Source: an uncultured Gemmatimonadaceae bacterium
GTDB taxonomy: Bacteria; Gemmatimonadota; Gemmatimonadetes; Gemmatimonadales; GWC2-71-9
Direction: 5' to 3'
DNA length: 64,000 nt
Assembly (NCBI GenBank): GCA_964571795.1
Contig: CAZNDK010000003.1
Location: 74,644 to 138,643, forward strand
Part shown: piece by piece, positions 1 through 27,638 of the stretch
Layout of the letters: each line of letters starts with the position of its first letter
Position numbering within the stretch: position 1 is the stretch's first letter
Translations under genes and position numbers: made by a program
The notes under the pieces: model-generated
What the model saw: the letters and a program-made list of their open reading frames with translations, nothing else
Database searches by the model: none
What the model was told of the DNA's origin: nothing

Positions 1-1
1 C

Positions 2-391
2 CTGGTGTCGGCCTCCGAGGAGGGACTGCTGCTGGGCGAGGTGGCGCGGGCCCGCTTCACGGCCGAAGAGGCGGTGCTCGCCTTTCCGGACGAGGCGGCG
101 GCCCATCTCGTGCTCGGGCGGGTGCTGATCGCGGAAGCGCGCTATGACGAGGCCGTCCTGCGGTTCACCCAGACGCTGCGCTGCGATCCAGCGTGTGCGC
201 CCGCACTACGGCTGCTTGGGCTGGCGGAGGTGGGGCGGGGACGCTTCGGCTCGGCGCTCGAGGCCTGGGCCCGCTGGGAGTCGCTCGACCCGCTGCCCGA
301 CAGCGAGCGCGGGCGCGACGACGTGGTGCGCCGCTGGCGCGCCGCCGTGGACACCCTGAAGGACGCACTCGGAGGACGCCGTGAGCAATGA
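2..391 (+). CDS. TPR-repeat protein, C-terminal part (5' end outside window)
   Basis: The frame is open from the window edge to TGA 389-391. It contains helical TPR-type repeats (AHLVLGRVLIAEARYDEAVLRFTQTLRCDP; APALRLLGLAEVGRGRFGSALEAWARWESLDP). Its stop overlaps the next start by 11 nt. Confidence 0.55.
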   Translation: MVSASEEGLLLGEVARARFTAEEAVLAFPDEAAAHLVLGRVLIAEARYDEAVLRFTQTLRCDPACAPALRLLGLAEVGRGRFGSALEAWARWESLDPLPDSERGRDDVVRRWRAAVDTLKDALGGRREQ

Positions 392-1241
392 AGACATCCG
401 CGTCCTGACCGCGCAACTGGCCGCCGACCCCTCGAGCCTGGTGTTCCTCCCGCTCGGCGAGGCGCTCCGGCGTCGCGGCCAGCTCGACGCCGCCGAGAAG
501 ATCGCCATCGCGGGCCTCACGCGGTACCCGGACCTGGCCGACGCCCACGACCTGCTGGCGCGCGTCCTCGGCGACCGGGGTGACCTCGAGCGCGCCTTCG
601 ACGAGTGGGATATCGCGCTTCGCCTCGACGAGCGCCATGCCGGCGCGCACAAGGGCATCGGGTTCCTCTACTACGTGGCGGGCGACCTCCCGCAGGCGCT
701 CGAGCACCTCGAGGCGGCCCTGGCCATGGATCCGGAGGCGGAAGGGGTCGCCGCCGCGGTGGCGCGGGTGCGCGAAGCGCTTGCCACGCCGGAGACGGCG
801 CGGGCGCGGCCCGACGCCCCCGCGGCGGTCCGGCCGGAGGAGCGGCATAAGGCGCCGCAGCCACGCGGCCCGGCCGATGACGCGCCCGCCGTCTTCGAGG
901 GCCTCGAAGGCGCCATGGACGGGCTCCTCCTGCTGGACGGCAACGGGTTGCGGCTGGGCGGCGGCCTGACCTCGCCCTCGGGGGAGGCGGTGGGCGACGC
1001 TGTCGCGGCGCATCTCGCCGGTGTCTTCCGCGACGCCTCCCGCGCCACGCGGCTCCTCTCGCTCGGGGCGTGGACCAGCGTGGCCGCCGAGACTGGCGAC
1101 GCGAACCTCTTCCTCTGCGCCCCGACGCCGGACTCGTTGCTCCTCCTGGTGCGCGACAACAGCGTGCCGATCGGCCGGCTGGCGCACCAGGCGGAACGCG
1201 CCGCGGAATCCGCCCGCCGCTGGCTGGAGCGGCCGGCATGA
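381..1241 (+). CDS. TPR + Roadblock/LC7 fusion protein
   Basis: The N-terminus has TPR-type repeats (GQLDAAEKIAIAGLTRYPDLADAHDLLARVLGDRGDLERAFDEWDIALRLDERHAGAHKGIGFLYYVAGDLPQALEHLEAALAMDP). An Ala/Pro/Arg-rich linker follows. The C-terminal ~110 aa show a Roadblock/LC7 pattern (MDGLLLLDGNGLRLGG..DAVAAHLAGVFRDASRATRLL..NLFLCAPTPDSLLLLV). GTG start; the stop shares ATGA with the next gene. Confidence 0.7.
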   Translation: MSNEDIRVLTAQLAADPSSLVFLPLGEALRRRGQLDAAEKIAIAGLTRYPDLADAHDLLARVLGDRGDLERAFDEWDIALRLDERHAGAHKGIGFLYYVAGDLPQALEHLEAALAMDPEAEGVAAAVARVREALATPETARARPDAPAAVRPEERHKAPQPRGPADDAPAVFEGLEGAMDGLLLLDGNGLRLGGGLTSPSGEAVGDAVAAHLAGVFRDASRATRLLSLGAWTSVAAETGDANLFLCAPTPDSLLLLVRDNSVPIGRLAHQAERAAESARRWLERPA

Positions 1242-1588
1242 GCACGAAGCTGCTCGACTCCCTCGAGACCGTCACCCGCGTGCGGGGCGTGCGCGGCGCC
1301 ATGGTGGTCTCGGCCGAGGAGGGGCTCGTCGTCGCGGAAACGTCGATGGAGGGCATCGACGGGTCGGCGGTGGCGGCGCTGACCGCCGGCGTCGTCGCGC
1401 GGCTCACCCGTGCCACGGAGGCCGCCGGCCGCGCGGCGCCCGCCTTCGTGCACCTGCAGGCCGAAGGCGGCGCGCTCCTGGCCGTTCCCGCGGGAGTCGA
1501 CCTGCTGGTCGTGGCGGTGACGGACGCCGAGGTGAACGTCGGGCTGGCCCGGCTGGAGCTCCGCCGCGCCGCGGAGCAACTGGCCTGA
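1238..1588 (+). CDS. Roadblock/LC7 domain protein (MglB/MglC-like paralog)
   Basis: 116 aa with the typical Roadblock pattern (VRGVRGAMVVSAEEGLVVAETSMEGIDGSAVAALTAGVVARLTRATEAAG..ALLAVPAGVDLLVVAVTD). The ATG at 1238 overlaps the upstream stop (ATGA), and its own stop overlaps the next ATG (TGATG). Confidence 0.75.
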   Translation: MSTKLLDSLETVTRVRGVRGAMVVSAEEGLVVAETSMEGIDGSAVAALTAGVVARLTRATEAAGRAAPAFVHLQAEGGALLAVPAGVDLLVVAVTDAEVNVGLARLELRRAAEQLA

Positions 1589-2049
1589 TGCGTGTCATCG
1601 AGCCCTGGGTCGCGGACCCGCTGCAGCGCTTCCTGGCGGAGTCGTCGGCCAGGCTGGTGCTCCTCACCACGTCATCGGGTCAGGTGGTGGCGCAGCATGG
1701 GTTCACGCGCGCGCTCGATGTGATGTCGGCCTCCGCGCTCGGGGCCGCCATCATGGCGAGCACGGAGGAGCTGGGACGGCTCACCGCGTCGGGGGCCTCG
1801 CGGGCGCTGTCGCACCAGGGTCCGTCGCGGGGGCTCTTCCTCTCGGCGTTCGACCTGCCGCAGGGCCGCTGGATCGGGCTGGTCGTGTATGACCGCGACA
1901 GCTCCCTCGGCCTGGTCCGGCTCTTCTTCGACCAAATGGTGCAGGAACTCCAGGCGCTCGCGCCGAAGGAAACGCCGGCCCGCGAGGTGCTGGCCGCCGA
2001 CTTCGAAAACGAACTCAACGCGAGCCTCCGCTCGCTCTTCGGACGGTAG
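1588..2049 (+). CDS. mglB: MglB-like Roadblock/LC7 GTPase-activating protein
   Basis: It lies directly upstream of mglA, the order seen in Myxococcus. It has a Roadblock core (LVLLTTSSGQVVAQHGFTRALDVMSASALGAAIMASTEELGRL). The block IGLVVYDRDSSLGLVRL resembles the VVLVVIFDNRTSLGLVRL block of M. xanthus MglB, as I recall that sequence from memory. It also carries a C-terminal extension. Confidence 0.75.
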   Translation: MRVIEPWVADPLQRFLAESSARLVLLTTSSGQVVAQHGFTRALDVMSASALGAAIMASTEELGRLTASGASRALSHQGPSRGLFLSAFDLPQGRWIGLVVYDRDSSLGLVRLFFDQMVQELQALAPKETPAREVLAADFENELNASLRSLFGR

Positions 2050-2052
2050 CAG

Positions 2053-2655
2053 ATGTCGCTCGTCAACTTCACGACCCGGGAAATCACCTGCAAGATCGTC
2101 TATTACGGACCGGGCCGGTCCGGCAAGACGACCAACCTGCAGTACATCTACGGGCGCGTGCCGGAGAGCCGCCGCGGACGGATGGTGTCGCTCGCCACCC
2201 AGTCGGACCGCACCCTCTTCTTCGACTTCCTGCCGATCGACCTCGGGAGCATCAGCGGCTTCACCACCCGGTTCCAGCTCTACACAGTGCCCGGCCAGGT
2301 GTACTACAACGCCACCCGCAAGCTGGTCCTCCAGGGCGCGGACGGGGTGGTGTTCGTGGGCGACAGCCAGGCCCGGCGGTACGACGACAACGTCGAGAGC
2401 CTGCAAAACCTCCAGGAAAACCTGCTGGCGCAGGGCGTGGACATCCGCCAGCTGCCGGTGGTGTTCCAGTACAACAAGCAGGACCTGCCGCGCGACCTCA
2501 TCCTGAACCCGGCCGAGCTCGACGACGCGCTCAATTTCCGCGGGGTCAAGAGCTTCGGCGCCGATTGCCTGCACGGGCACGGGGTGTTCGAGACCCTGAA
2601 GGGCATCTCGGAGCTCGTGCTCCAGCGGCTGGCGGCGGGGAGTCCGGCGGCGTGA
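2053..2655 (+). CDS. mglA: MglA, Ras-like small GTPase (polarity/gliding regulator family)
   Basis: Near-colinear similarity to my recollection of M. xanthus MglA: REITCKIVYYGPGRSGKTTNLQYIY (P-loop), SDRTLFFDFLP (intrinsic Arg region), FQLYTVPGQVYY (switch II Gln), QYNKQDL (G4). Confidence 0.92.
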   Translation: MSLVNFTTREITCKIVYYGPGRSGKTTNLQYIYGRVPESRRGRMVSLATQSDRTLFFDFLPIDLGSISGFTTRFQLYTVPGQVYYNATRKLVLQGADGVVFVGDSQARRYDDNVESLQNLQENLLAQGVDIRQLPVVFQYNKQDLPRDLILNPAELDDALNFRGVKSFGADCLHGHGVFETLKGISELVLQRLAAGSPAA

Positions 2656-4652
2656 CCACGCAGCTGAGCCCGCAATTCCGCTTCGACGGGTTCATCGTCG
2701 GCGCGGCCAACCGCCTGGCCGCCACGGCGGCGCGTGCGGTGGCCGAGTCGCCCGGCACCGCGTACAACCCACTCTTCATCTACGCCCGGCCCGGGCTGGG
2801 CAAGACCCACCTCCTGATGGCGATCGGGCACGCCGCGCAGGCCATCAATCCGGCGCTGACCGTCGAGTACGTGACCCTCGACGACTTCGTGGAGGCCTTC
2901 CACACGGCGGTCGGGGCGGGGCAGGGCGAGGTGTACCGGCGGCGGTTCGCGGAGTCCGACCTGCTGTTGCTGGACGACGTGCAGTTCGTCACCCACCGCC
3001 GCGAAACCCAGGCCGAGCTGCTGCGGCTGGTCGACCAGATGCAGACGGCCGGGCGCCAGATCGTGCTGACCAGCGACCGCCCCCCCGCCGAGATCGAGGC
3101 GCTCGACGAGCGGCTCCTCCGGCGGGTCGCAGGCGGCCTGGTCATCGACATCGCGGCCCCGGACTACGAGACGCGGGTCGCCATCCTGCGCCGGAAGGCG
3201 GAGGAGCGGCAGGCGAAGTTCCTGCCGGGGGTCCTCGAGGCGGTCGCGACGCTGGCGCTCGACAGCGTGCGTGAACTGGTGGGTGCGCTGAACCGGCTGG
3301 TGGCCTTCCAGTCGGTGGGCGAGGCGCCGCTGGACGCCGCGCAGGCCCGACTCGTCCTCGGCGTCCGCGCCATCGCGGCCGATGTCCCCGCAGTAGGGCA
3401 GGCGGACGGCGATCCGGAAGAGCCAGTGCGCGCCCTCGGTCCGACGCATCCTGCCGGCGCGGCTCCCGCGGAGGCGCCCGATGAGTTCGGCGCGTTCCTG
3501 AGCGAAGTGGCCGATACGCTCACCCGGCAGGTGGAGGGGTGGCGTCGGCGGGTCGAGGAGGCCATCGCGCGCTGGGAGGACCAGGGCTACCGGACGGCTC
3601 GGCTCGCCGGGTTGCTCGATCGCGGCCTCGACGGCGACCCCGCGGAGGCGCTCTCGGGCTTCGTGGCCGACGTCGAGCGGCTGCAGGCGCTGCAGGCCGA
3701 GGCGGCGGCGCTCGCGGCCGACCTCGCCGCCGACCCGGTGTTTCGCGACCCCGACGCCATTCCGGTCGCCGAGGCGTTCCTGGCCCGCGGCCGCGAAGGT
3801 GCGTCGCCCCCGCCGCCGCCCGAGCCGATCTGGGTGTTCGACGACCTGGTCGAGTCGGCCGGCAACCGGATGGCGCTGCGCTCGACCCGCGAGGTGGCCG
3901 AGCGCCCCGGCGTCGCGTACAACCCGCTGGTCATCCTTGGCGGCGCCGGCGTCGGCAAGACCCACCTGCTTCACGCGCTCGGCAATCTCCTGCAGGCCGC
4001 GCCGGGCGCGGTCGTCGCCTGCCTCAACACCCAGGATTTCACCGACGAGCTCATCGAGGCGATCGAGCGCGATCGCGTGGGGCAGTGGCGGTCGCGTTAC
4101 CGGCGCGTGACCGCCTTCCTGCTCGATGACGTTCAGCTCGCCGCCGGCAGGGAGAGGACCCAGGAGGAGCTCTTCCTCCTCTTCAATCATCTCCTGGAGC
4201 AGGGCTCGCAACTGGCCTTCACTTCGTCGGTGGCCCCCGGCACCATCGAGCATTTCGAGGAGCGACTCGCCAGCCGGCTCGCGGGCGGGCTCGAGGTGGA
4301 GCTGCCCCCGCCGGAGCGCGAAGTGCGCCAGGCCGTGATCGAGCGGCTGCTCGGCGCCCGGTACGACCGGGTGGACGCCGAGCTGGCCAGCTTCCTGGCC
4401 GGCCGCCCGGCCGAGTCGGTGCGCGCGGTGCAGGCCCTCGTGCAGCGCATCGAGGCGGCGGCCGACGCGCGGCATGCGGAGCCGGATGTGGCGCTGGCGC
4501 GCGAGGTCCTCGAGGGCGCCGCCCCGAAGCCACCGCGGCCCGCGCCCGGCGTGCGCACCAGCGGCGTCGGGGCCGGCGGCATCCGGAGCCCGGAAAAGGC
4601 GGTCTGGGAATGGCCCGATCTCGGTGAGCGGCTCATCGAGGAGTGGCGCTGA
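2652..4652 (+). CDS. Tandem DnaA/Hda-like AAA+ ATPase (two AAA+ modules, no DnaA domain I or IV)
   Basis: GTG 2652 overlaps the mglA stop (GTGA). Module 1: PGLGKTHLL, LLLLDDVQF, IVLTSDRPPAEI, LDERLLRRVAGGL, SVRELVGALNRL. Module 2: GAGVGKTHLL, AFLLDDVQL, LAFTSSVAPGTI, FEERLASRLAGGL, SVRAVQALVQRI. No HTH/DnaA-signature C-terminus is visible. Confidence 0.8.
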   Translation: MTTQLSPQFRFDGFIVGAANRLAATAARAVAESPGTAYNPLFIYARPGLGKTHLLMAIGHAAQAINPALTVEYVTLDDFVEAFHTAVGAGQGEVYRRRFAESDLLLLDDVQFVTHRRETQAELLRLVDQMQTAGRQIVLTSDRPPAEIEALDERLLRRVAGGLVIDIAAPDYETRVAILRRKAEERQAKFLPGVLEAVATLALDSVRELVGALNRLVAFQSVGEAPLDAAQARLVLGVRAIAADVPAVGQADGDPEEPVRALGPTHPAGAAPAEAPDEFGAFLSEVADTLTRQVEGWRRRVEEAIARWEDQGYRTARLAGLLDRGLDGDPAEALSGFVADVERLQALQAEAAALAADLAADPVFRDPDAIPVAEAFLARGREGASPPPPPEPIWVFDDLVESAGNRMALRSTREVAERPGVAYNPLVILGGAGVGKTHLLHALGNLLQAAPGAVVACLNTQDFTDELIEAIERDRVGQWRSRYRRVTAFLLDDVQLAAGRERTQEELFLLFNHLLEQGSQLAFTSSVAPGTIEHFEERLASRLAGGLEVELPPPEREVRQAVIERLLGARYDRVDAELASFLAGRPAESVRAVQALVQRIEAAADARHAEPDVALAREVLEGAAPKPPRPAPGVRTSGVGAGGIRSPEKAVWEWPDLGERLIEEWR

Positions 4653-6271
4653 TGGCCATCAAGGGCAGCCTCAAGGAAGCCAGCCTTCCCGACGTGATCC
4701 AACTGCTCGCGCTGGGCCGGAAGACCGGCTGCCTGGCAGTCGCCGACCGGCAGAACTTCGGCTACACCTATTTCGACGACGGACGGATCGTCTACGCCTC
4801 CATCGTGAACCGGCGGGACCGGCTGGGCGATCTGCTGGTGCGGAACGGGCGGATCACCGATGAACAACTGCGCGCCGCGGTGGACCGGCAGGCAGGCGAC
4901 CGCGACCGGAAGCTGGGCGAGATCCTGGTGGAGCTGGGGCACATCACGCGCGCGGAGCTCGAGGAGCACATCAGGGTGCAGGTCGAGGAAGCCGTGTACT
5001 ACCTGTTCACCTGGAGCAGCGGCACCTTCAACTTCGAGGCCGGGGTGCGGCCGGAGCGGGAGGACTTCCTGGTGTCCATCAACCCGGAGTCGCTGCTGCT
5101 CGAGGGCGCGCGGCGGGTGGACGAATGGAGCCTCATCGCCAAGAAGATCCCGACGCTCGACATCGTCTTCGAGGCCGACCAGCCCCGGCTGCAGGCCGCC
5201 GGCGTCCGGCTGAGCGACGAGCAGGAGATCATCCTGCCGCTCCTGAACGGCCGCAACGACGTCCAGGACGTCGTGGACGCGTCGGGGCTCGTCGAGTTCG
5301 AGGTGGGCAAGGCCATCTACGGCCTGCTCGCCGCCGGGTTCGCCCGGCGGGTGGGAACCTCGGCCACCCAGCAGTCGGAAAAGGTGAACGACGCCCGCGT
5401 GGAGGAGCATCGCAACCTCGGGGTCGCCTTCTACAAGACCGGCATGTTCGACGAGGCGGAGCGGGAGTTCCGGCGGGTCGCGGAGTTGCGCGCCACCGAG
5501 GGCAACGCGCCGTTCTACCTGGGGCTGATCGCGCTCCGGCAGGCGCGCTGGGCCGACGCGGCGGAGTCGTTCAAGAGCGCGGTGGACCTCGGCGGCCCGC
5601 GGCCGGCGGCGCTGCACAACCTGGCGCTGTCGCTCGAGCGGCTCGGCAAGCTGGCCGAGGCAGAGGCGGCCTGCTCCGAGGCGGTGAGCCGCGCGCGCGA
5701 GGACGCCCGCCCCATGCTGCTCTGGGGTGTCATCGCGCTGAAGCGGGAGGACGCCGAGGTGGCCGAGGGCCGGCTCGCGCGGGCGCGCGAGCTGCTGGGA
5801 ACCAAGCCGGTGCCGCCGCTCTGGTTCTGGGCGGCGGAGCTGGCAGCGGCCTCCTCGGGCGACCTGCCGAGGGCGGTCTCGGTGGCCCGCGAGGGCGTCC
5901 GTGCCTGGCCCGTGCATCCCGTGCTCCGGAACAACCTGGCGGTGCTGCTGGAGCTGACGGGGGAGCTCGCCGAAGCCGAGAGCGTCCTGCGGGCCACGCT
6001 CGCCGAGGAGCCAAGCCTGCCCCAGCTGTCGAAGAATCTCGGCGACCTCCTCTATCGCGGCGGTCGGTACGACGAGGCGCAGGAGGCCTTCGACCGCGCC
6101 GCCAAGCTGGCCCCGGACCTTGGCGACGACCTCTACTTCAAGCTCGGCAATCTGGCATTCCGCCGGCGCGACCGGGAGCGGGCGCGTGACTGCTGGCGCC
6201 GGGCCGCGGAGCTGAATCCGGGCCATCAACTGGCCCGGTCGAACCTCGAGATCCTGGATGTTCCCGCGTGA
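4652..6271 (+). CDS. PATAN (DUF4388) domain + TPR-repeat protein
   Basis: The N-terminus MAIKGSLKEASLPDVIQLLALGRKTGCLAVADRQNFGYTYFDDGRIVYA matches the DUF4388/PATAN pattern. A GSPII_E_N-like segment follows (RLGDLLVRNGRITDEQLRAAV..KLGEILVELGHITRAELEEHI). The C-terminal half has TPR repeats (HRNLGVAFYKTGMFDEAEREFRRVAEL etc.). ATG 4652 shares TGATG with the upstream stop; an in-frame GTG at 4643 is the alternative start. Confidence 0.7.
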   Translation: MAIKGSLKEASLPDVIQLLALGRKTGCLAVADRQNFGYTYFDDGRIVYASIVNRRDRLGDLLVRNGRITDEQLRAAVDRQAGDRDRKLGEILVELGHITRAELEEHIRVQVEEAVYYLFTWSSGTFNFEAGVRPEREDFLVSINPESLLLEGARRVDEWSLIAKKIPTLDIVFEADQPRLQAAGVRLSDEQEIILPLLNGRNDVQDVVDASGLVEFEVGKAIYGLLAAGFARRVGTSATQQSEKVNDARVEEHRNLGVAFYKTGMFDEAEREFRRVAELRATEGNAPFYLGLIALRQARWADAAESFKSAVDLGGPRPAALHNLALSLERLGKLAEAEAACSEAVSRAREDARPMLLWGVIALKREDAEVAEGRLARARELLGTKPVPPLWFWAAELAAASSGDLPRAVSVAREGVRAWPVHPVLRNNLAVLLELTGELAEAESVLRATLAEEPSLPQLSKNLGDLLYRGGRYDEAQEAFDRAAKLAPDLGDDLYFKLGNLAFRRRDRERARDCWRRAAELNPGHQLARSNLEILDVPA

Positions 6272-7089
6272 TCGTGGACGACGAAGAGGGCTTCAAGGCG
6301 CTGACGCGCCGGGTGTCCCGCGACGCGGGCCTCTCGCTGGACGCCTACAAGGACAAGTGCCTCCGACGGCGGCTGCTCGTCCGGATGCGCGCCTGCAGCG
6401 TGCACACCTATGCCGAGTACATGTCGGTCCTCGACCGGCGGCCCGAGGAGTGGGACAAGCTGAAGGACGCGCTCACGATCAACGTGACGCGCTTCTACCG
6501 GAATCCCGAGACCTGGGACCGCCTCCGCCAGGACTTCCTGCCGGAGCTCCTGCGTGCGCGCCAGGGGCGCGTGCAGGCGTGGAGCGCAGGGTGCTCCTCC
6601 GGCGAGGAGCCCTACACGCTCGCCATGCTCTGCGCCGAGGTGGCCGAGTCACTGGGCTACGCGTCCTGGGCCGAACGGGTACGGATCGATGCCACCGACA
6701 TCGATCGCGAGAGCCTCGAGCGCTCGACCGCCGGACGCTACCCGCATTCCGCATTCCTTGAGGCGCCAGGGTGGATGACGGCCCGGTATTGCGAGCCCAC
6801 GGAGGACGGCTGGCAGGTGCGCGACGCCGTCCGGCGCATGGTGACGGTGCGTCGCCTCGACCTCACCCGGGAGGCGCGTCCCCCGGCCAGCGCGGACCTG
6901 ATCCTGTGCCGCAACGTCGTCATCTACTTCGACCGGCCGATGCAGGAACGGCTCTTCGGCCAGTTCGCAGAGGCGCTGACCCCGGGAGGCATACTCGTGC
7001 TGGGCAAGGTCGAAACGCTCCTCGGCGTCGCGCGGGAGCGGCTCACCCTGGTCGACGCCCGCGAGCGCATCTTCCGGCGGCCCGCATGA
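6268..7089 (+). CDS. cheR: Chemotaxis protein methyltransferase CheR
   Basis: CheR N-terminal helical domain (LDAYKDKCLRRRLLVRM) and SAM-binding motif (VQAWSAGCSSGEEPYTLAM; LILCRNVVIYFD). The GTG start overlaps the upstream stop (GTGA). Confidence 0.9.
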   Translation: MIVDDEEGFKALTRRVSRDAGLSLDAYKDKCLRRRLLVRMRACSVHTYAEYMSVLDRRPEEWDKLKDALTINVTRFYRNPETWDRLRQDFLPELLRARQGRVQAWSAGCSSGEEPYTLAMLCAEVAESLGYASWAERVRIDATDIDRESLERSTAGRYPHSAFLEAPGWMTARYCEPTEDGWQVRDAVRRMVTVRRLDLTREARPPASADLILCRNVVIYFDRPMQERLFGQFAEALTPGGILVLGKVETLLGVARERLTLVDARERIFRRPA

Positions 7090-7574
7090 AGGCCGGCGAG
7101 ATCATGGTCCACGTGGCTGAATACAAGGTGGGCGGGGCGGGGGACACGCTGATCACGGTGGGGCTGGGCAGCTGCGTGGCGGTGGCGCTGCACGATGCCG
7201 ACGCCAAGGTCGGCGGGCTGGCCCACATCCTGTTGCCGTCGCCGGCGCTGAGCCGCCGCGACCCGAACCCCGGCAAGTTTCCGCAGACGGCCATCCCCCT
7301 CCTCCTCCAGGACATGGTCGGCCGAGGTGCCCGCGCGTCGCGCATCACCGCGCGCCTGGCGGGGGGCGCCTCCATGTTCATGAACCTGCAGCCGGCCGGG
7401 ACGATCCAGATGGGGGAGCGCAACCTCGTGGCGGTGCGCGCTGCGCTCACCCACCACGGCATTCCCCTCGTGGGGAGCGCCGTCGGGGGCGACTTCGGGC
7501 GGACCATCCGCTTCTTCGTGGACGACGGGCGCATCGAGGTCTCGACGGTTCGCCGGGGAGTGACGCATCTCTAG
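7086..7574 (+). CDS. cheD: Chemoreceptor glutamine deamidase CheD
   Basis: 162 aa with CheD motifs ([34 protein letters not shown]). ATG 7086 overlaps the cheR stop (ATGA). Confidence 0.85.
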
Positions 7575-8631
7575 CCTGCCGACGGTCCTGGTTGCCGACG
7601 ACAGCGCGCTGATCCGGCGCCTCCTGACGGAGATCATCGACGGCTCGGGCGAGTTCCGCGTGGTGGCCACGGCACGGCACGGGCTCGACGCGCTCCGCAA
7701 GGTGCACGAATACCAGCCCGACCTGGTCACGATGGACCTCGAGATGCCGGAGCTCGACGGCCTCGGCGCCATCGGGTACCTGATGTCCGAGGCCCCGCGC
7801 CCGGTCGTGGTCATCAGTTCGTACGCGGGGCCCGGCACCGCCGGGGCCATCCGCGCGCTGGAGCTCGGCGCGGTGGAGCTGGTGGCCAAGGAGGCGGGCC
7901 GGGACGACGAGTCGCGGGGCCGCTTCTCCGCGCGGGTGCTCGAGGCGCTCCGGGCTGCGCGCGCCGCCGATATCCATCGGATGCCGATGCTGGCCCGGCC
8001 GCACCGGCCCGACCTGCCGGCCGATTCGTTCGCGCTGCCGGGGCGCGCCCGCTTCTGCGTGGCGATCGCCGCCTCGACCGGCGGCCCGCGGGCGCTCGCG
8101 GAGGTCATTCCGCACATCGCGCGCGGGCACCAGGCGGCGGTGGTGGTCGTGCAGCACATGCCGCCCCGCTTCACGCGCAGCCTGGCCGAGCGTCTCGCGG
8201 TGCAGAGCGACCTGGCGGTGGTCGAGGGCGAGCACGGCGCCCCGCTCGTGTCGGACACCGCGTACATAGCGCCGGGGGATTATCATATGCGAGTGACGGA
8301 CGGACCCGACGGCATCGCGCTCGCGCTCGACCAGGGACCGCCGCTCTGGGGCGTGCGGCCTGCCGCCGATCCGCTGTTTCGGTCCGTGGCCCAGCTGTTC
8401 GGGCGGCGCGCCGTGGGCGTGGTCCTCACCGGGCTCGGGCGCGATGGCGCGGAAGGGCTCCGGCAAATTCACGACGCCGGCGGCAAGGGCATCGCGCAGG
8501 ACCGCGGGAGCTCCACCATCTTCGGTATGCCCAACGCGGCGCAGCTCGCCGGCGGGGCCGACCTGGTGCTCCCGGTCGGCGAGGTCGGCGCCCGCGTCAC
8601 GGCGCTGCTGGCCCGGATGAACCTCGCGTGA
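7567..8631 (+). CDS. cheB: Chemotaxis response regulator protein-glutamate methylesterase CheB (start codon unresolved)
   Basis: Receiver domain ([34 protein letters not shown]) plus esterase triad contexts ([33 protein letters not shown]). The first canonical start, GTG 7660, would delete receiver strand 1 and the DD pair. The frame is open from 7564 with only ATC 7567 (6 nt after GGAG) or CTG 7576/7588 as possible starts. Confidence 0.8.
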
Positions 8632-9065
8632 CCGCCGTCGGCACGTGCCAGTACCTGCTGGTCCACGCCGGCGGACGCCCGATCGGGCTCGAGGTGGCCG
8701 AGGTGCTGGAGGTCGTCGACCTCTCGGCCACGTTCGCCGTGCCCACCCACGAGCCGGCGCTCCGCGGCGTGGTGGCCGTGCGCGAACGCCTCGTGCCGGT
8801 GGTGAACCTGTCGGCCGTGCTCTGGGGCGACTCCGCGCCGGCCGTCCGTGGCGAGGTGGGCGTGCTCGCGCGGGCGGGCCGCCAGCGCATCTGCCTCGAG
8901 GTGGACAGTGCGGAGGCGGTGCTCGCCGAAGACGTGGTGCCGGTGCCCGCCGGCGAGTCGCTCCCGTGGGCCATGGGAGTCGCCCGCCGCGACGGGGCGC
9001 TGGTCCCGATCCTTGACCTCAAAGCCCTGGGAGCCCGGCTCCTGGGAGGGAAGAGCGGTGCATGA
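8628..9065 (+). CDS. cheW: CheW-like coupling protein
   Basis: 145 aa with a CheW-like pattern ([57 protein letters not shown]). GTGA overlap with the cheB stop. Confidence 0.7.
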
Positions 9066-9523
9066 CGACCGGCGATGACATCCAGGTGGTGATCTTCCAG
9101 GGCGGCACGCAGGAGTTCGCCCTCGAGATTTCCCAGGTGGACCGAATCCTCCGCTACCAGCAGCCGTCGGCGGTGCCGAGCGCGCCCGACTTCCTCGAGG
9201 GCGTCCTGCCGTACGGCGGCGGTGTCGTGCCGGTGGTGGACCTTCGGAAACGCCTCGGGGTCGAGGCCCGCCAGCAGGACGAGACCCGGGTCATGATCGT
9301 CACCATGGACGGGCAGCGGGTCGGGATGATCGTGGACGGCGTCCGCGAGGTGCTGCGCATCGACAGTCGCCGGATCGCCGCCCCGCCGGCCATGGTGCGG
9401 GGCCTGGCGGCCAAGTACATCGCCGGCGTCCTCACCCTCGAGGGCCGCACCGTAATCCTGTTGCAGGCGGGTCGGTTGTTCAGCGGCGAGGAGCGCCTGC
9501 AACTCGAGGCCGCCGCCACGTGA
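9062..9523 (+). CDS. cheW: CheW coupling protein
   Basis: 153 aa with the classical CheW pattern (VVIFQGGTQEFALEISQVDRILRY..PDFLEGVLPYGGGVVPVVDLRKRLG..VGMIVDGVREVLRI). ATGA overlap. Confidence 0.85.
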   Translation: MTTGDDIQVVIFQGGTQEFALEISQVDRILRYQQPSAVPSAPDFLEGVLPYGGGVVPVVDLRKRLGVEARQQDETRVMIVTMDGQRVGMIVDGVREVLRIDSRRIAAPPAMVRGLAAKYIAGVLTLEGRTVILLQAGRLFSGEERLQLEAAAT

Positions 9524-10392
9524 CGGAGGGCTGGCTCACGGCCCTGCGCGACGAATACGCCGCCCTTGCCGCGCGACTGGGCAAGGCGCCGGCCGGGGCG
9601 GAGCGCCAGGCCATCAAGCGGGACATCATCGCCTACTTCAAGAGGGTGGACGGCACGCTCGGGGAGCTTGCGGCGCTCAAGGAGCAGATCCGCGCCCTCG
9701 TCGAGCAGTACAAGCAGCTGGCGGCCGACGCCGAGGACACCGAGGCGCCGCAATTCACCGGCGCCCGGCCGGTGGTGCACGCCGATCACCTCGGCGCATC
9801 GACCTACATCGAGAAGGGCTGGAGCCTGATATCGCTCGGCGACTTTCCCGGCGCCATCCAGGCCCTGGGCAAGGCGCTCGCCCTCTCCCCCGACGACACG
9901 CAGGCGCTCTCCCTGCTCGGCTGGGCTCAGATGCTCGCCGAAGAGTACGACGAGGCGCTCGGCACCTTCTCGAAGGTCCTCATGCGGGAGCCGGCGAATG
10001 CGCTGGCCCGAATCAACGTCGGCTACATCTGCCTCAAGAAGCGCATCTTCGGCGAGGCGATTGAGCATCTCTCCCGCGCCATCCGCCTCGACAACGACCG
10101 GAAGGCCACCCTCTACGCGCACTTCTACCTGGGGCTCGTCTACCAGGAACGCGAGATGTACGAGGACGCGGACGCCTTCTTCCGCAAGGCGCTGGCCCTG
10201 GGCCCCAACCTGATCGAGGCCTACTACGAACTGGGCCGGTCGCTCTGGTTCATGGGACGGAAGGACGACGCGAAGCAGGCCTGGACCGACGGACACAAGG
10301 CCAACAAGTTCAACCCGTGGGGCAAGCGTTGCCGCGAACTGCTCGACCTCGCGGCCGCCGGAGGGGACATCCCTCGACGTTCTCCAGCCTGA
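9520..10392 (+). CDS. Coiled-coil + TPR-repeat protein
   Basis: N-terminal heptad-like segment (GELAALKEQIRALVEQYKQLAAD), then TPR repeats (YIEKGWSLISLGDFPGAIQALGKALALSPDD; ALSLLGWAQMLAEEYDEALGTFSKVLMREP; HFYLGLVYQEREMYEDADAFFRKALALGPN). GTGA overlap with cheW. Confidence 0.7.
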   Translation: MTEGWLTALRDEYAALAARLGKAPAGAERQAIKRDIIAYFKRVDGTLGELAALKEQIRALVEQYKQLAADAEDTEAPQFTGARPVVHADHLGASTYIEKGWSLISLGDFPGAIQALGKALALSPDDTQALSLLGWAQMLAEEYDEALGTFSKVLMREPANALARINVGYICLKKRIFGEAIEHLSRAIRLDNDRKATLYAHFYLGLVYQEREMYEDADAFFRKALALGPNLIEAYYELGRSLWFMGRKDDAKQAWTDGHKANKFNPWGKRCRELLDLAAAGGDIPRRSPA

Positions 10393-11321
10393 TACTCGCT
10401 GTCGCGCTCCTGCAGGGACAACCGACCGCCACGACGGTGGGGCGCGTCACGGCGGTCGCCTGGCCCGCCGACGCGGCGATGGCCGCCGGGCTGGCGGAAC
10501 TCGCGGACCAACCGGCCACGTGGCCCGGACTCGGGCAGCGAGACCTCGGTGAACTCCGGCTGGTCGTCACCTCCGATTCCCAAAGCTTCCGCGAGTTCAC
10601 GCGGGGCCGGCTCCCCGGCTGGGGCGCCGGTGCGGCCTTCCCCGGCGGGCGCACCATCGTGCTCCGCGCCGACGCGGGCGACGTGGTGGGGACCCTGCGC
10701 CACGAGCTCGCGCACCTGGCGCTTCATCAGGCGGTCCGGGGGCGCGTGCCGCTCTGGTTCGACGAGGGCTACGCAACCGTGGCGAGCGGCCAGTGGGACA
10801 TCTTCGACCGGCTCGGCGTGAACCTGGCCGTGGCGAGGGGCGCCACACCAGGGTTGCGGGAGCTCGACGGGGCGCTCCGCGCGTCCCAGATGTCGGCCGA
10901 TGCCGCCTACGCGCTGGCGGCCACGGCGGTCCTCGAATTGGCCCGGCGGAACCCGACCGGCACGCTCGATCCGCTCTTTGAGCGGCTCGAGGCCGGCACC
11001 GGATTCGACGAGGCGGTGCTCGCGACCACCGGCTTGAGCCTGGATCGGTTCGACGAACTGTGGCGCCGCAGCGTCCGGTTGCGGTTCGGGTTGGTCACGT
11101 GGATGCTCGGCACGGGGCTCTGGATCGTCATGGCGGCCCTGCTTGCCATCGGGTACGAGGCTCGACGCCGCCGGGACCTGCCGAGGAGGGCGGCACTGGA
11201 CGTCGGGTGGGTGGTCGAGCCGGAGGAGCCCCCGGCCGACCTTCCAGGTCAGGACACCGGCGGCCCGGAAGTGCCCCCAAATGAGGCCGGCCCGCTTGAC
11301 CATGGGCGCACTCCCGGCTAG
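10317..11321 (+). CDS. Putative MA-clan (HExxH) metallopeptidase-like membrane-anchored protein
   Basis: HELAH motif followed by WFDEGYA (a possible third zinc ligand Glu). The N-terminus is signal-like (RRRGHPSTFSSLILAVALLQG) and there is a C-terminal TM segment (LVTWMLGTGLWIVMAALLAIGY). The start is uncertain: GTG 10317 overlaps the upstream gene by 76 nt, and GTG 10437 is the alternative. Confidence 0.55.
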   Translation: MGQALPRTARPRGRRRGHPSTFSSLILAVALLQGQPTATTVGRVTAVAWPADAAMAAGLAELADQPATWPGLGQRDLGELRLVVTSDSQSFREFTRGRLPGWGAGAAFPGGRTIVLRADAGDVVGTLRHELAHLALHQAVRGRVPLWFDEGYATVASGQWDIFDRLGVNLAVARGATPGLRELDGALRASQMSADAAYALAATAVLELARRNPTGTLDPLFERLEAGTGFDEAVLATTGLSLDRFDELWRRSVRLRFGLVTWMLGTGLWIVMAALLAIGYEARRRRDLPRRAALDVGWVVEPEEPPADLPGQDTGGPEVPPNEAGPLDHGRTPG

Positions 11322-11333
11322 CGTTCTCCGCTT

Positions 11334-11525
11334 ATGCCCGAACCATCAAAGGTCACGAAGGCGCGTGCTATCCCGCTGGGGCCTCGCAACTTGGCCCTCC
11401 TCGCGGCCGGAGTCGTCTCGCTCGTGGCGGGATACTTGCTCCTCGCTTCCGGAAGCACCAGCCTTGCTGCGGTGTTGCTGGTCCTCGGCTACTGCGTCCT
11501 TCTCCCATTGGGAATCGCGCTCTAG
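11334..11525 (+). CDS. Small two-TM membrane protein (DUF3098-like pattern)
   Basis: 63 aa with two hydrophobic spans (NLALLAAGVVSLVAGYLLLA; LAAVLLVLGYCVLLPLGIAL). GC3-rich codon usage is consistent with real coding. Confidence 0.45.
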   Translation: MPEPSKVTKARAIPLGPRNLALLAAGVVSLVAGYLLLASGSTSLAAVLLVLGYCVLLPLGIAL

Positions 11526-11550
11526 CCCGGGCCATCCCGGTCGCGCGACC

Positions 11551-11624
11551 GGGCGAATAGCTCAGCTGGTTAGAGCGCCTGCCTTACACGCAGGATGTCG
11601 GGGGTTCGAGTCCCTCTTCGCCCA
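11551..11624 (+). tRNA. tRNA-Val (anticodon TAC)
   Basis: Manual cloverleaf: acceptor GGGCGAA/TTCGCCC, D arm GCTC..GAGC, anticodon stem CCTGC/GCAGG with loop CTTACAC, T arm GGGGG-TTCGAGT-CCCTC, discriminator A. CCA is not encoded. Confidence 0.9.
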
Positions 11625-11690
11625 TGGGGCCGCGCGAGCCGCGGTCTGGTCGGTACCCGCACTCTGTTCCGTTCTCTGGAGGCCGCAGGA

Positions 11691-13403
11691 ATGCGCCTGA
11701 ATCGCCTGGTCCCGGTTGTCGCCCTCGGTCTCCTCGGCGCCTTGCCCGCCGGCGCGCAGATCCCCTCGGGCGCACGGCGCCTCGGCGCGCCCGCGGTGGC
11801 GTCGCCCAAGCTGCTGGTTGCTACGCCCTACGCGTTCGTCGAGGGCGATTCGGCCATGGCGGTCGAGGTGGGCAACGCGCTCCGTGTCCGGATGGAAAAG
11901 GTGGCCGGCACCACCTACCGCGTCGTGCCGCTGAAGCAAATGCAGTCCGCGCTCGCCCAGTACGGCTATCCGGTCGATGCCCTCCTGCAGCCGGTGGTGG
12001 CGCGCCGTTTCGCTCTCGAACTGCAGGCGCGGGTCATGCTGACCTCCTCGCTCGCCAAGAACGAGTCCGGCGTGTACGTCATCACCGCCCGGTTGGCCGG
12101 GGTCAACGACGATGCCGGCAACGTGGTCGTGGTCCGCCAGACCGCGGGGCAGACGGCCAAGCAGCTCGGCGAGGCCGTGGCCGATCTCTTCAGCCCCGCC
12201 GTGAAGTCGGCCGATGAGGCCAAGATGTGCGTGGACGAGCGCGCCACCAAGCCGGACAAGGCGGCCGATGCCGCCAAGAAGGCGATCGCCATCCTGCCCA
12301 CGAACGGTCTCGCCCAGTTCTGCCTCGCGCAGCTCGCGATGGACCGGAAGGCGCCGTCCGCCGAGGTCGTCGCGGACCTGCAGGCGGCGGTCAAGGGCGA
12401 TCCGCAGAGCCTCCCGGCGTGGAACGCGCTCGCCCGGGAATACCAGGCCGCGAACGACAGCGCCAACGTCATCGATGCCTACCAGCACATGCTGCTGGCG
12501 GCGCCGACCAACCAGCCCCTCCGCGAAACGGCCTTCAAGCTCTTCCTTCAGTACGGCCGCCCGGACGCTGCCGTCGAGGTGGCCAAGGAAGGCCTGAAGC
12601 TGGACCCGTCCAACGCCGACCTGTGGGACCTGCTCAGCAATGCCTACGCGACGGCCGGAGACTATCCGCAGGCCATCCAGTCCCTCGAGCACGTCTATCT
12701 CGAGGCGCCGGACCGCGCCGACTCGACGTACTTCCTCAAGATCACGGTCTTCGCGGCGGCCCAGCCCGACACGGCCGCCCTGCTCAAGTGGGCCCGACTC
12801 GGCGTGGACAAGTACCCGGACAATTCGGCGCTGCTTGGCCAGCTGGTCACGGCCTACGGCCTGACCGGCCCCGCCGACAGCCTGGTCGCGGTCACCAGCC
12901 GGCTCATCGTGCTCGACCCGACCGCCGTAGCGCCCGCACTCTCCGCCGCCAAGGTGCTCGGCGAGCAGAAGCGGATCACCGAGGCCATGCTCTTCACCGA
13001 CTTCGCCATCCAGCATGGCGACGCGCAGGAAAAGGAGAGCGCCGCCGCCATCCTGACGAACGGGGCGCTGCCGCTCCTCCAGCCGGCGGAGCAGAACCTC
13101 CCGCTGGCGGCCGACGTGTTGCGCCGGGCGGTGGGGGCAGCGGCTCCCGACGGCCGTGTGGCCCCGACCGCCAACTACCTGCTCGGCCTGGCCACGTTCT
13201 ATCAGGTTCCGGCCATCGACAAGCAGGCCGAGGCCACCAAGTCGTGCGAGCTGGCACGCAAGGAAGAGGGGCTCCTGGCGGAAGCGGAGAAGGGATTCAC
13301 CCTCGGCGCGGCCACGAAGCCGGCGGACGCGGCCAAGAATCTCGACTTCATCAACCAGTTCAAGCCGCGAGTGGCCTCGATGATCAAGGCCTACTGCCAG
13401 TAG
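11691..13403 (+). CDS. Secreted TPR-repeat protein
   Basis: Signal peptide MRLNRLVPVVALGLLGALPAGAQ. The rest is a long Ala/Leu-rich helical repeat protein with TPR-like units (PAWNALAREYQAANDSANVIDAYQHMLLAAPTN; ADLWDLLSNAYATAGDYPQAIQSLEHVYLEAPD). The track ORF start at 11595 would overlap tRNA-Val and is rejected. Confidence 0.7.
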   Translation: MRLNRLVPVVALGLLGALPAGAQIPSGARRLGAPAVASPKLLVATPYAFVEGDSAMAVEVGNALRVRMEKVAGTTYRVVPLKQMQSALAQYGYPVDALLQPVVARRFALELQARVMLTSSLAKNESGVYVITARLAGVNDDAGNVVVVRQTAGQTAKQLGEAVADLFSPAVKSADEAKMCVDERATKPDKAADAAKKAIAILPTNGLAQFCLAQLAMDRKAPSAEVVADLQAAVKGDPQSLPAWNALAREYQAANDSANVIDAYQHMLLAAPTNQPLRETAFKLFLQYGRPDAAVEVAKEGLKLDPSNADLWDLLSNAYATAGDYPQAIQSLEHVYLEAPDRADSTYFLKITVFAAAQPDTAALLKWARLGVDKYPDNSALLGQLVTAYGLTGPADSLVAVTSRLIVLDPTAVAPALSAAKVLGEQKRITEAMLFTDFAIQHGDAQEKESAAAILTNGALPLLQPAEQNLPLAADVLRRAVGAAAPDGRVAPTANYLLGLATFYQVPAIDKQAEATKSCELARKEEGLLAEAEKGFTLGAATKPADAAKNLDFINQFKPRVASMIKAYCQ

Positions 13404-13540: not shown

Positions 13541-13576
13541 CACCCCGTTCGCCCTGGCGGACGGGGTGTTCTCTTT
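13541..13576 (+). terminator. Intrinsic terminator after tRNA-Asp
   Basis: About a 12-bp stem (CACCCCGTTCGC / GCGGACGGGGTG, including one G-U pair) around the tetraloop CCTG, followed by TTCTCTTT. Confidence 0.6.
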
Positions 13577-13600: not shown

Positions 13601-14509
13601 GTGACCGAATTCCACCTCCCCGTCCTCCGCGACGCCGTGCTCCAGGTGGCGTCCGGCGCGCGACGCGCCGTCGACGCCACACTGGGCGACGGCGGGCACG
13701 CGGCCGTGCTGCGAGGCGCGGGCGCGGAGGTGCTCGGCATCGACCGGGATCCCGAGGCGATCGCGCGGGCCCGCGAGCGCCTCGGCACCGACGGCATCCG
13801 CTACCTCAACGCGCCCTACGCCTCGGCCGAGGCGCTGGCGGCGGTGGACGATTTCCACCCCGACTTCATCCTGCTCGACCTCGGCGTGTCGTCACGGCAG
13901 CTCGACGACGAGGCCCTGGGGTTCACCTTCCGCCGGGGCGCCGCGCTCGACATGCGGATGTCCCGCGCCGGGCCCACCGCGGCGGATCTCCTCAATCATG
14001 CGCCCGCCGCCGAGCTCGCCGCCGTCTTCAAGGACTTCGGCGACGAACCGCGGGCCCGACGCCTCGCGGATGAGGTCGTGCGGCGCCGAGCCCAGGCGCC
14101 GTTCATGGTCAGCGACGATTTCGTGAACGCCATCCGGGGGGTGCTCGGCGCCCGCTCGGGGCCGGGCGACTTCGCGCGGCTCTTTCAGGCGTTGCGCATC
14201 GCCGTCAACGGCGAGCTCTCCGGCCTGTCCGAGGCGCTTCCTGCGTTCCGTGACAGCCTCGCGCCTGGCGGTCATCTCGCGGTGATCAGTTATCATTCGG
14301 GCGAGGATCGGGTGGTGAAGCACGCCTTTCGCGAGTGGGCCACGGCCTGCATCTGCCCACCGGTGCAGCCGGTCTGTACCTGCCGCGGCCGGGCGCTCGG
14401 GCGGCTCTCGCCACGCAAGCCGATACTTCCGTCTCCTGAAGAAGTGGCCACCAACCCCAGGGCGCGGAGCGCGAGGCTCCGCGTATTTCAGGTTGCCGAT
14501 GACGCTTAA
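13601..14509 (+). CDS. rsmH: 16S rRNA (cytosine1402-N4)-methyltransferase RsmH (MraW)
   Basis: Motifs HLPVL, AVDATLGDGGHA, ILLDLGVSSRQLD, ISYHSGEDRVVK. It is the first gene of the dcw cluster. GTG 13601 was chosen because the longer ORF runs through tRNA-Asp. Confidence 0.9.
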   Translation: MTEFHLPVLRDAVLQVASGARRAVDATLGDGGHAAVLRGAGAEVLGIDRDPEAIARARERLGTDGIRYLNAPYASAEALAAVDDFHPDFILLDLGVSSRQLDDEALGFTFRRGAALDMRMSRAGPTAADLLNHAPAAELAAVFKDFGDEPRARRLADEVVRRRAQAPFMVSDDFVNAIRGVLGARSGPGDFARLFQALRIAVNGELSGLSEALPAFRDSLAPGGHLAVISYHSGEDRVVKHAFREWATACICPPVQPVCTCRGRALGRLSPRKPILPSPEEVATNPRARSARLRVFQVADDA

Positions 14510-19553: not shown

Positions 19554-19559
19554 GGCCCG

Positions 19560-22036: not shown

Positions 22037-22044
22037 GCGCCCCG

Positions 22045-24260: not shown

Positions 24261-24309
24261 CTCCGCTCTTTCGCAACTCTCGACAAGATTTTACATTAGC
24301 TCAATTCCA
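24261..24309 (+). promoter_or_regulatory. AT-richer intergenic spacer; possible internal promoter for murC-ftsQAZ
   Basis: This is the only sizeable gap inside the dcw cluster and is locally AT-rich (caagattttacattagctcaattccaATG). There is a weak TTCGCA(24270)-16 nt-TACATT(24292) pair. No Shine-Dalgarno is visible before ATG 24310. Confidence 0.3.
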
Positions 24310-27616: not shown

Positions 27617-27638
27617 TCCGCCCCGAGAGGACACACCC

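Follow-up and report, generated by a model that had tools for sequence, protein, structure and literature searches.

What does a protein made of two DnaA-type ATPase modules do beside the gene for a polarity GTPase? The question is raised by a 64,000-nucleotide stretch of DNA from an uncultured Gemmatimonadaceae bacterium (contig CAZNDK010000003.1 of assembly GCA_964571795.1, positions 74,644 to 138,643; G+C ~73%), referred to here as the window, in which a gene at 2652..4652 on the + strand encodes a 666-residue protein with two AAA+ modules and overlaps the end of mglA. We find that this tandem protein is best described as belonging to a new family of the initiator clade, so far uncharacterised, which combines two DnaA domain III modules with a novel helical domain and a C-terminal motif. 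As it is co-encoded with MglA in a conserved chemosensory cluster, its most likely function lies in cell signalling rather than DNA replication.

Results

Two DnaA domain III modules in one polypeptide

The tandem gene runs from a GTG codon at 2652 to a TGA stop at 4650-4652. The GTG sits within the mglA stop, in a GTGA start/stop overlap at 2652..2655 (+ strand). An initial annotation, made from the sequence alone, had proposed this start, and it was borne out in three ways: a gene caller based on codon-position G+C (third-position G+C, GC3) picked 2652..4652 independently, the N-termini of homologues coincide with it in the family alignment, and a GGGGAG box precedes it. The list of open reading frames also holds a frame of 695 residues (TTG 2565 to 4652) that contains the gene. 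GC3 was 0.92 overall and 0.78-0.98 in every 50-codon block, the region between the modules included; the whole 666-residue frame is therefore coding.

Each half of the protein was recognised as a DnaA-type AAA+ module, as the initial annotation had it. Module 1 (residues 1-236, 2652..3359, + strand) comprises a domain III core and lid and is 42% identical to domain III of Bacillus subtilis DnaA; module 2 (residues 393-625, 3828..4526, + strand) is a second domain III, 38% identical to the same protein. PF00308 (Bac_DnaA) matched twice in a Pfam search, at residues 5-166 (expectation value, E, 9.4e-50 for the isolated half) and at residues ~393-550 (E 4.7e-42). The NCBIfam model TIGR00362 aligned with each half over its positions ~101-337 of 437 only, which correspond to domain III with the lid. 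The protein begins where domain III begins, with residue 4 aligned to residue 110 of B. subtilis DnaA. Profile searches for domain I (PF11638, DnaA_N) and, at E<=0.01, for domain IV (PF08299, Bac_DnaA_C) gave no Pfam match in the tandem protein, in line with the earlier statement that both are missing.

DnaA domain III structures were the best matches to the modules. B. subtilis DnaA (PDB 8bv3) matched module 1 in sequence at E 1e-52 and was also the best structural match by Foldseek (template modelling score, TM, 0.95; root-mean-square deviation, rmsd, 1.4 Å), with T. maritima 2z4r and A. aeolicus 2hcb/3r8f also found. An AlphaFold2 model of the tandem protein had a mean predicted local distance difference test score (pLDDT) of 84 and a predicted TM score (pTM) of 0.47. 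In this model both modules share the DnaA strand order, and both carry the initiator-specific two-helix insertion between beta2 and beta3 (helices 76-88 and 92-100 in module 1, 460-472 and 476-484 in module 2). These results support the assignment of both modules to the DnaA/initiator clade of AAA+ proteins.

The AAA+ signature residues for catalytic competence are present in both modules, which are thus predicted to bind and hydrolyse ATP. Module 1 has Walker A at G48-T52 (GLGKT, nt 2793-2807) with K51, Walker B D108/D109, sensor I D142, box VII R154/R158 and sensor II R207. Module 2 has Walker A at G433-T437 with K436 (within GAGVGKT, G431-T437, nt 3942-3962), Walker B D492/D493, box VII R538/R542 and sensor II R591. 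Every motif that had been quoted earlier was found at the residues and nucleotides given for it. The accompanying claim, that all nucleotide-binding and arginine-finger positions are intact, held for both modules with one qualification: the sensor-I Asp is absent from module 2, which reads TSS, with Ser at the sensor position, where module 1 reads TSD. An active ATPase pseudo-dimer, as originally suggested, is plausible from these residues.

We assessed conservation in a set of 77 sequences, the window protein and 76 cluster representatives. The Walker A Lys was kept in 77/77 at module 1 and 62/77 at module 2, the first and second Walker B Asp in 77 and 75 of 77 at module 1 and in 65 and 59 of 77 at module 2, and the arginine finger in 58/77 and 62/77, respectively. 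Within the Gemmatimonadales clade the catalytic residues are invariant in both modules, except for the sensor-I Asp, which is confined to module 1. Positions equivalent to the residues of DnaA that contact single-stranded DNA (ssDNA) were not kept in module 1 (H84, E118) and were moderately kept in module 2 (I468, with I or V in 47/77; R502, in 54/77).

The two modules are 36% identical to each other and so do not stem from an assembly duplication. The initial annotation had reached the same view from the divergence of the halves, and more than 120 full-length homologues at 60-95% identity agree with it and also speak against a chance arrangement. In a crude neighbour-joining tree, module 1 and module 2 sequences mostly form separate groups, which is consistent with one old duplication having given rise to both.

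A conserved middle domain and C-terminal tail

The region between the modules (~155 residues, 237-392) had been described as an Ala/Glu/Arg/Pro-rich linker. That description fits its first ~40 residues (237-276, 3360..3479, + strand), which are gapped and unconserved in the alignment and disordered in the model (pLDDT <50 at 239-275); over the family this linker varies from 7 to 69 residues. The remainder, however, is a conserved helical domain of ~115 residues (277-392, 3480..3827, + strand; pLDDT ~90, and 88.5 when modelled alone), with the invariant motif DEFxxFLxE…W297…W308xxxG312…R365xP367. Pfam, PDB sequences and Foldseek gave no relatives of this middle domain, and the idea that it is a degenerate DnaA domain I, II or IV was rejected, as hhalign against a full-length DnaA profile was empty. 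A JGI metagenome protein of 1248 residues (P0270) carries eight tandem ~100-residue repeats of the middle domain (W-x2-[EQ]-G-[YF]…DPD) followed by a single DnaA domain III; the middle domain is therefore an autonomous, repeatable module. P0270 would be a PATAN-DnaA fusion if its N-terminus were a PATAN domain, but neither Pfam nor a custom PATAN hidden Markov model (HMM) supported this.

The C-terminal tail (residues 626-666, 4527..4649, + strand) does end in EEWR, as first noted, but it is not simply a short Pro/Gly extension. It bears the strongly conserved motif R635..G638…E648-K649-x-V-W652-x-W654-P655-x4-R660-L-I-E663-E-W-R666-COOH, with invariant alignment columns and short helices predicted at 647-665 (pLDDT ~70). 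The motif persists over the 50%-identity cluster representatives, down to ~33% identity.

A large family under generic or wrong names

Tandem domain III proteins had first appeared to be an oddity, and instead form a large family. In an exhaustive search, about 70 of the best 150 50%-identity cluster representatives have two modules, down to ~33% identity, and nearly all of these two-module proteins contain the middle domain and the C-terminal motif. The same architecture occurs on hundreds of independent contigs, with intact frames and high GC3. The 35 genome loci are labelled Gemmatimonadota, apart from one probably mis-binned "Acidimicrobiia" contig. Four further members (P0170, P0296, P0309 and P0314) are labelled 'Gemmatimonadetes/Gemmatimonadota', and the branch of P0188 is labelled "Candidatus Cloacimonetes bacterium 4572_55".

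Members of the family are already in the databases under generic or wrong names. NCBI calls homologues "DnaA/Hda family protein [Gemmatimonadales bacterium]", and JGI calls many of them "chromosomal replication initiator protein DnaA". The latter label is an artefact: the summed score against TIGR00362, the DnaA equivalog model, exceeds the cut-off (452.9 vs 343.9; window protein and homologues P0001-P0120) only because two partial domain III scores are added together. Literature searches aimed at such a tandem DnaA-like protein found no description of one, and the earlier remark that no MglA partner of this kind has been described agrees with them.

The tandem gene belongs to an MglA, PATAN and chemosensory cluster

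In the window, mglA (2053..2655, + strand, 200 residues) matches Myxococcus xanthus MglA (5ymx/6izw) at E 6e-71, with the TVPGQ and DRTLFFDF motifs aligned. The gene before it (1588..2049, + strand, 153 residues) matches M. xanthus MglB (6h5b/6izw) at E 2e-7 and NCBIfam MglB weakly, and its position is conserved. Judged by these matches, mglA encodes a bona fide MglA-type small GTPase and its MglB-like partner is genuine.

Among the 35 Gemmatimonadota loci, all those of sufficient length had the same gene order: TPR – TPR/Roadblock – Roadblock – MglB-like – MglA – tandem ATPase – PATAN(DUF4388)/TPR – CheR – CheD – CheB – CheW. The orthologous locus L003 contains a complete DUF4388+TPR gene (4583-5740) preceded by genes for a TPR protein (897 residues), CheC and CheA, and the full conserved order is CheA-CheC-TPR-PATAN/TPR-Roadblock×2-MglB-MglA-tandem gene-PATAN/TPR-CheR-CheD-CheB-CheW×2-TPR-peptidase-TPR. 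In all of the 35 clade loci that reach it, mglA lies directly upstream, with fragmented matches only in L033 and L035. The MglA of the window is 83-100% identical to its counterpart in most related loci, and identities of 48-75% were seen only in those two fragmented matches. An RTGA overlap with mglA was present in 32/32 loci read, including lineages at 36-43% identity, and this bears out the proposed translational coupling of the two genes.

Four more distant members, at 36-50% identity (P0161 in L040, P0132 in L042, P0173 in L045 and P0298 in L048), likewise have MglB-MglA upstream and PATAN/TPR and Che genes downstream; the MglA of L048 is 77% identical. The linkage to mglA is lost in five deeper lineages (L036, L038, L043, L044 and L049). 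Of these, P0194 (L043) and P0174 (L049) retain PATAN/TPR and Peptidase_MA_2 downstream, P0290 (L044) stands in the order CheW-CheY-CheA-AAA_22-CheW-CheC-TPR(826)-PATAN-tandem ATPase, P0188 (L038) shows the same order from CheY onward, where that locus starts, and P0170 (L036) retains only the giant TPR protein upstream. Genes of 200-202 residues upstream in L036 and L049 were considered as MglA and are not MglA. PATAN/TPR follows the tandem gene directly in all sampled lineages that have PATAN/TPR downstream.

Much of the family thus keeps its tie to mglA, and PATAN, TPR and Che proteins are the more general partners. The mglA/mglB linkage, for which a neighbourhood survey had been proposed, was found in the clade and in four further lineages, but only some members of the family have mglA right beside them. 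None of the replication genes dnaN, dnaA, recF or gyrB adjoined any sampled member. A link to replication or the cell cycle, on which the initial annotation had speculated, lacks contextual support: the fusions and neighbourhoods found are all of a signalling kind (REC, Che, PATAN, MshEN-type motif).

Two features of the related clusters are recorded here as side observations. Peptidase_MA_2 is flanked by TPR genes at the distal end in L040, L042, L043, L045, L048 and L049, which include lineages that have no MglA. A small AAA_22-type ATPase (266-272 residues) lies between che genes (cheA or cheB, and cheW) in three loci (L038:2035-2853, L044:3743-4561 and L048:7074-7874) and has no counterpart in the window cluster.

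Signalling fusions and c-di-GMP motifs

One member is fused directly to phosphorelay signalling. In P0211 (L050:9249-11465) a receiver (REC) domain replaces the Trp-rich tail after the tandem DnaA modules and middle domain, and the neighbouring genes encode Hpt-REC-Hpt-REC proteins and a hybrid histidine kinase. The second module of P0211 is degenerate, with HG in place of Walker B.

Directly downstream of the tandem gene in the window, and overlapping its last 10 nt, is the gene for a PATAN (DUF4388) and TPR protein of 542 residues (4643..6271, + strand, GTG start; PF14332 E 6.5e-39). Its PATAN helical insertion contains two 24-residue MshEN-type cyclic di-GMP (c-di-GMP) motifs, RLGDLLVRNGRITDEQLRAAVDRQ and KLGEILVELGHITRAELEEHIRVQ, at residues 60-111 (nt 4820-4975), and the protein scores 50.2 bits with the model NF053729 ("c-di-GMP-binding domain, MshE-related"), above its cut-off of 38. 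The motifs are retained by every PATAN protein of the related clusters. Through the helical insertion, an HMM of the PATAN proteins of related clusters also matches the N-termini of MshEN-DnaA fusions and of PilB-PATAN fusions.

The MshEN-DnaA fusions occur in a pilus cluster of another lineage (L047:1062-17238), where DnaA-type modules fused to MshEN lie between pilD and pilB. The order there is pilin-like, pilD, a 921-residue MshEN protein with two DnaA modules, a 421-residue MshEN protein, a 246-residue protein with a single DnaA module, a 1876-residue MshEN protein with two DnaA modules, TonB_C and pilB. We considered these fusions as members of the family; they have neither the middle domain nor the tail and form a separate family. 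Two further proteins, P0416 and P0417, are PilB/TadA-like ATPases of 968-1080 residues that combine MshEN, T2SSE and PATAN (PF14332) domains and carry several repeats of the MshEN-type motif.

Three published sources bear on the PATAN proteins. In cyanobacterial regulators, the PATAN domain binds PilC and an N-terminal portion of PilB1 and suffices to reverse phototaxis, and co-occurrence of PATAN with GspE_N was remarked in the same preprint (bioRxiv 10.1101/2021.06.11.447907). PATAN proteins are among the candidates recovered near the MglA effector SgmX (PMC11580455), and MglA/MglB genes occasionally adjoin PATAN genes (PMC4316618). None of these three sources mentions a DnaA-like ATPase.

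Other genes of the cluster and the window

The remaining genes of the cluster are also on the + strand. At the window start lies the 3' part of a PATAN/TPR gene cut by the boundary (5..391), of which only the TPR part, with TPR matches, is left; the DUF4388+TPR gene of L003 (4583-5740) is its complete orthologue. It is followed by a TPR and Roadblock/LC7 fusion of 286 residues (381..1241; TPR families, and Robl_LC7 at residues 180-256) and a Roadblock/LC7 protein of 116 residues (1238..1588; PF03259, E 9.5e-10). Together with the MglB-like protein (1588..2049), three Roadblock/LC7-type proteins are thus encoded ahead of mglA, which suggests a multi-subunit Roadblock platform.

Downstream of the PATAN/TPR gene, Pfam matches and conserved order identify cheR (6268-7089), cheD (7086-7574), cheB (ending at 8631), cheW (8628-9065) and a second cheW (9062-9523). 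Pfam matches also identify a TPR protein (9520-10392), a Peptidase_MA_2 protein (10437-11321) and a further TPR protein (11691-13403) at the distal end of the cluster. In cheB, the receiver domain starts upstream of the first in-frame ATG, GTG or TTG at 7660; the stop-to-stop frame opens at 7564, and no canonical start lies between the preceding stop and 7660. Locus L001, at 95% identity, likewise has no such start. Translation must then begin at a non-canonical codon (CTG/ATC), unless the receiver is made without its acidic pocket. Neither the window cluster (1-13403) nor the annotated stretches of related clusters showed an MCP gene. The only + strand terminator-like site of the cluster region is at 13550-13568, with none inside the cluster.

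A role in anti-phage defence was also considered: PADLOC returned only a P-loop-local 29-bit match of the tandem protein to mad8 and nothing for its neighbours, and this role is without PADLOC support.

A complete dcw division and cell-wall cluster adjoins at 13601-28784 (mraW, ftsL-like, ftsI, murE, murF, mraY, murD, ftsW, murG, murC, ftsQ, ftsA and ftsZ), with no mraZ in it. The TPR-mraW-ftsL-ftsI adjacency is also present in L040, where the tandem ATPase is 36% identical. Over the whole window (1-64000) all predicted genes are on the + strand except a MazG-like gene (36256-37035), and 4-nt start/stop overlaps are frequent; a minus-strand call at 31894-32694 is spurious, as the + strand there encodes FtsY (31898-32836). 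Two well-supported coding regions have no Pfam match at E<=1e-4: 30095-31885 (596 residues, after an M23 peptidase gene) and 40017-41222 (401 residues, before an OMPP1/FadL-like gene).

Discussion

Comparison with known systems

The modules share with DnaA domain III (8bv3/8btg, 2z4r, 2hcb/3r8f) the fold, the two-helix insertion, Walker A and B, the box VII Arg and sensor II, at 36-42% identity. Unlike DnaA, however, the protein has two modules per chain, no domains I, II or IV, and an extra helical domain and C-terminal motif, and in all loci long enough to judge, its context is chemosensory/MglA and not oriC/dnaN. With domains I and IV absent, this is not the architecture of a replication initiator. 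Hda/HdaA resembles the tandem protein in being a DnaA-derived AAA+ protein without the DNA-binding domain IV, but consists of a single ~230-residue module preceded by a clamp-binding motif, whereas here there are two modules and no such motif. The beta-clamp-binding motif of Hda is of the QL[SP]LPL type; QLSPQF at the N-terminus of the tandem protein was examined as a candidate and is the ordinary LNPxxxF start of domain III (consensus MTxxLNPxxRFDxFVVG), in which Q4 is not conserved. Against the Hda model TIGR03420 the whole protein scored 156 (cut-off 194.8) and the halves 82.6 and 82.5, and Hda structures matched at E 1e-6, compared to 1e-52 for DnaA.

An IstB/DnaC-type helicase loader or transposition helper was rejected, with scores below the family cut-offs (100.9 vs 200 for IstB model NF038214; 40.5 vs 357 for DnaC model NF005931) and no transposase gene found by Pfam in the window cluster. 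Type II AAA+ proteins (p97/Cdc48, NSF, ClpB) also have two AAA+ modules per polypeptide, but theirs are of the classic and HCLR clades and stack into closed hexamers, whereas initiator-clade modules, as here, typically form open spirals. Superposition on type II proteins was poor (TM 0.25-0.29, rmsd ~20 Å) and reflects generic AAA+ similarity only.

The closest parallel to the surroundings of the gene is the Frz-MglA/MglB-RomR/RomX and SgmX system of M. xanthus, in which MglA, MglB, extra Roadblock proteins, TPR proteins and Che-type genes likewise come together; the window MglA is ~62% identical to that of M. xanthus, read by eye from the alignment. The described Myxococcus module has no AAA+ ATPase, and RomR, RomX and FrzS were not recognised in the window cluster. 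The PATAN-TPR proteins and the tandem ATPase are thus lineage-specific additions relative to that module. The PATAN regulators PixG, PixE, PatA and SgnC and the MshEN receptors of PilB/MshE are likened here to the PATAN neighbour and are not homologues of the tandem ATPase; the PATAN proteins of these clusters bear TPR repeats and not the receiver domains of the PATAN regulators.

A possible ATP-gated assembly switch

We propose, tentatively and with somewhat less than even confidence, that the tandem protein acts in an MglA/PATAN/c-di-GMP/Che polarity pathway as an ATP-gated assembly switch, with a type IV pilus-type motor as the probable output. Initiator-clade AAA+ proteins assemble head to tail in an ATP-dependent manner through an arginine finger supplied in trans, and their hydrolysis is slow and stimulated by partners. 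Like them, the tandem protein would be a slow, switch-like ATPase. The arginine finger of a neighbouring module, in the same chain or in another, would complete each ATP site in trans, and ATP would by this means drive head-to-tail assembly into an open oligomer or platform. The state of assembly would be coupled to MglA-GTP, made stoichiometrically through the start/stop overlap, and also to the adjacent, putatively c-di-GMP-responsive PATAN-TPR protein. The ATPase would act downstream of, or parallel to, the Che pathway. TPR domains are known to bind C-terminal peptides, and the acidic/aromatic C-terminal motif may, speculatively, dock to a TPR protein of the cluster. In Myxococcus and Thermus, pilus polarity is set by MglA; the likeliest output here would be to set how a type IV pilus-type motor is polarised, or how active it is, under Che control.

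Several points weigh against this proposal. Its weakest step is the pilus output, as neither the window nor the flanking DNA retrieved for MglA-linked loci contains a pilus gene. The MshEN-DnaA fusions of the pilus cluster, which have neither the middle domain nor the tail, therefore offer an analogy only. Around a fifth to a quarter of sampled members substitute at least one catalytic residue in one module, so that dual catalysis is not universal, and the AlphaFold2 model does not pack the modules confidently against each other (pTM 0.47). Partner binding, ATPase activity and oligomerisation are all predicted. Finally, the position of the cluster directly upstream of the dcw genes would also fit a role in division.

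What other roles, then, might the protein have? It could regulate replication or the cell cycle, its modules hetero-oligomerising with DnaA-ATP (by Hda-like hydrolysis or by capping of filaments) and so coupling replication to MglA polarity or division. In favour of such a role are the resemblance of the modules to DnaA domain III, their retention of both box VII arginines and of the initiator-specific helices, the ssDNA-contact equivalents of module 2 (I468, R502), and the dcw genes beside the cluster in the window and in L040. We nevertheless consider it unlikely, given that replication genes are missing from beside every sampled member, that there is no Hda clamp-binding N-terminus and TIGR03420 stays below its cut-off, that fusions and neighbours are all signalling proteins, and that module 1 does not conserve its own contact equivalents. 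Less likely again is that the protein is a second nucleotide switch in series with MglA, which co-assembles with DnaA-ATP or unwound DNA and reports replication status to MglA/PATAN/Che and to the division cluster. The protein could co-assemble in this way because the oligomerisation surface of DnaA (arginine fingers, initiator-specific helices) and the module 2 contact equivalents are kept, and this, if true, would provide a direct molecular link from chromosome replication to polarity, motility or division. An improbable further reading is that the divisome or polar growth, and not a motility machine, is what the MglA/PATAN/tandem-ATPase cluster places or times. Cyanobacterial PatA is found at division sites and interacts with divisome proteins. 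The cluster lies just upstream of mraW-ftsL-ftsI…ftsZ in the window, an adjacency shared with the 36%-identity lineage, while DivIVA is encoded near the L043 member, and bactofilins, an amidase and an EPSP_synthase-family (PF00275) gene, possibly MurA, near the L036 member. However, the dcw adjacency may be inherited synteny only, the Che genes and the PATAN-PilB precedents indicate motility, and, as a weaker point, a terminator-like hairpin separates the cluster from mraW.

We give still less credence to a role as a positioning ATPase, bound to the nucleoid or to ssDNA, by which a cytoplasmic chemosensory array would be anchored or partitioned; in function it would be analogous to the ParA-like PpfA/ParC but on a DnaA fold. 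Such a role would suit the che genes around the tandem gene, the lack of an MCP gene in the window cluster and in the annotated related stretches, the ssDNA-contact equivalents of module 2, and the extra small AAA_22 ATPase beside cheA/cheW in related clusters. Yet the protein has no domain for binding double-stranded DNA, its ssDNA-contact positions are conserved only moderately, and we know of no precedent for a DnaA-fold positioning system. An artefact, whether a genuine dnaA, an assembly duplication or a pseudogene in decay, has virtually no probability left. The JGI names and the TIGR00362 sum above its cut-off would suggest a dnaA, but that sum adds two partial matches and domains I and IV are absent; the 36% identity of the halves and the hundreds of contigs with intact frames and high GC3 argue against duplication and decay. 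Domain content, the partial nature of the TIGR00362 matches, the homologues, GC3 and the divergence of the halves together exclude this explanation.

In DnaA and Hda, AAA+ modules of the DnaA fold serve to initiate replication or to regulate its initiation, and a large family in which two of them are fused is of a different kind. If our preferred reading, an ATP-gated assembly switch in a polarity pathway, is true, an initiator-type ATP switch has been re-used for cell signalling, in a double-module family without DNA-recognition domains that is tied to a Ras-like polarity GTPase, PATAN/c-di-GMP adaptors, TPR scaffolds and a chemosensory pathway. The mislabelling of its members as DnaA in public metagenome annotation can mislead origin prediction and surveys of gene content. 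The family is a candidate new class of component for MglA systems, and it offers an entry point to the control of polarity and motility in Gemmatimonadota, a widespread soil phylum with hardly any cell biology.

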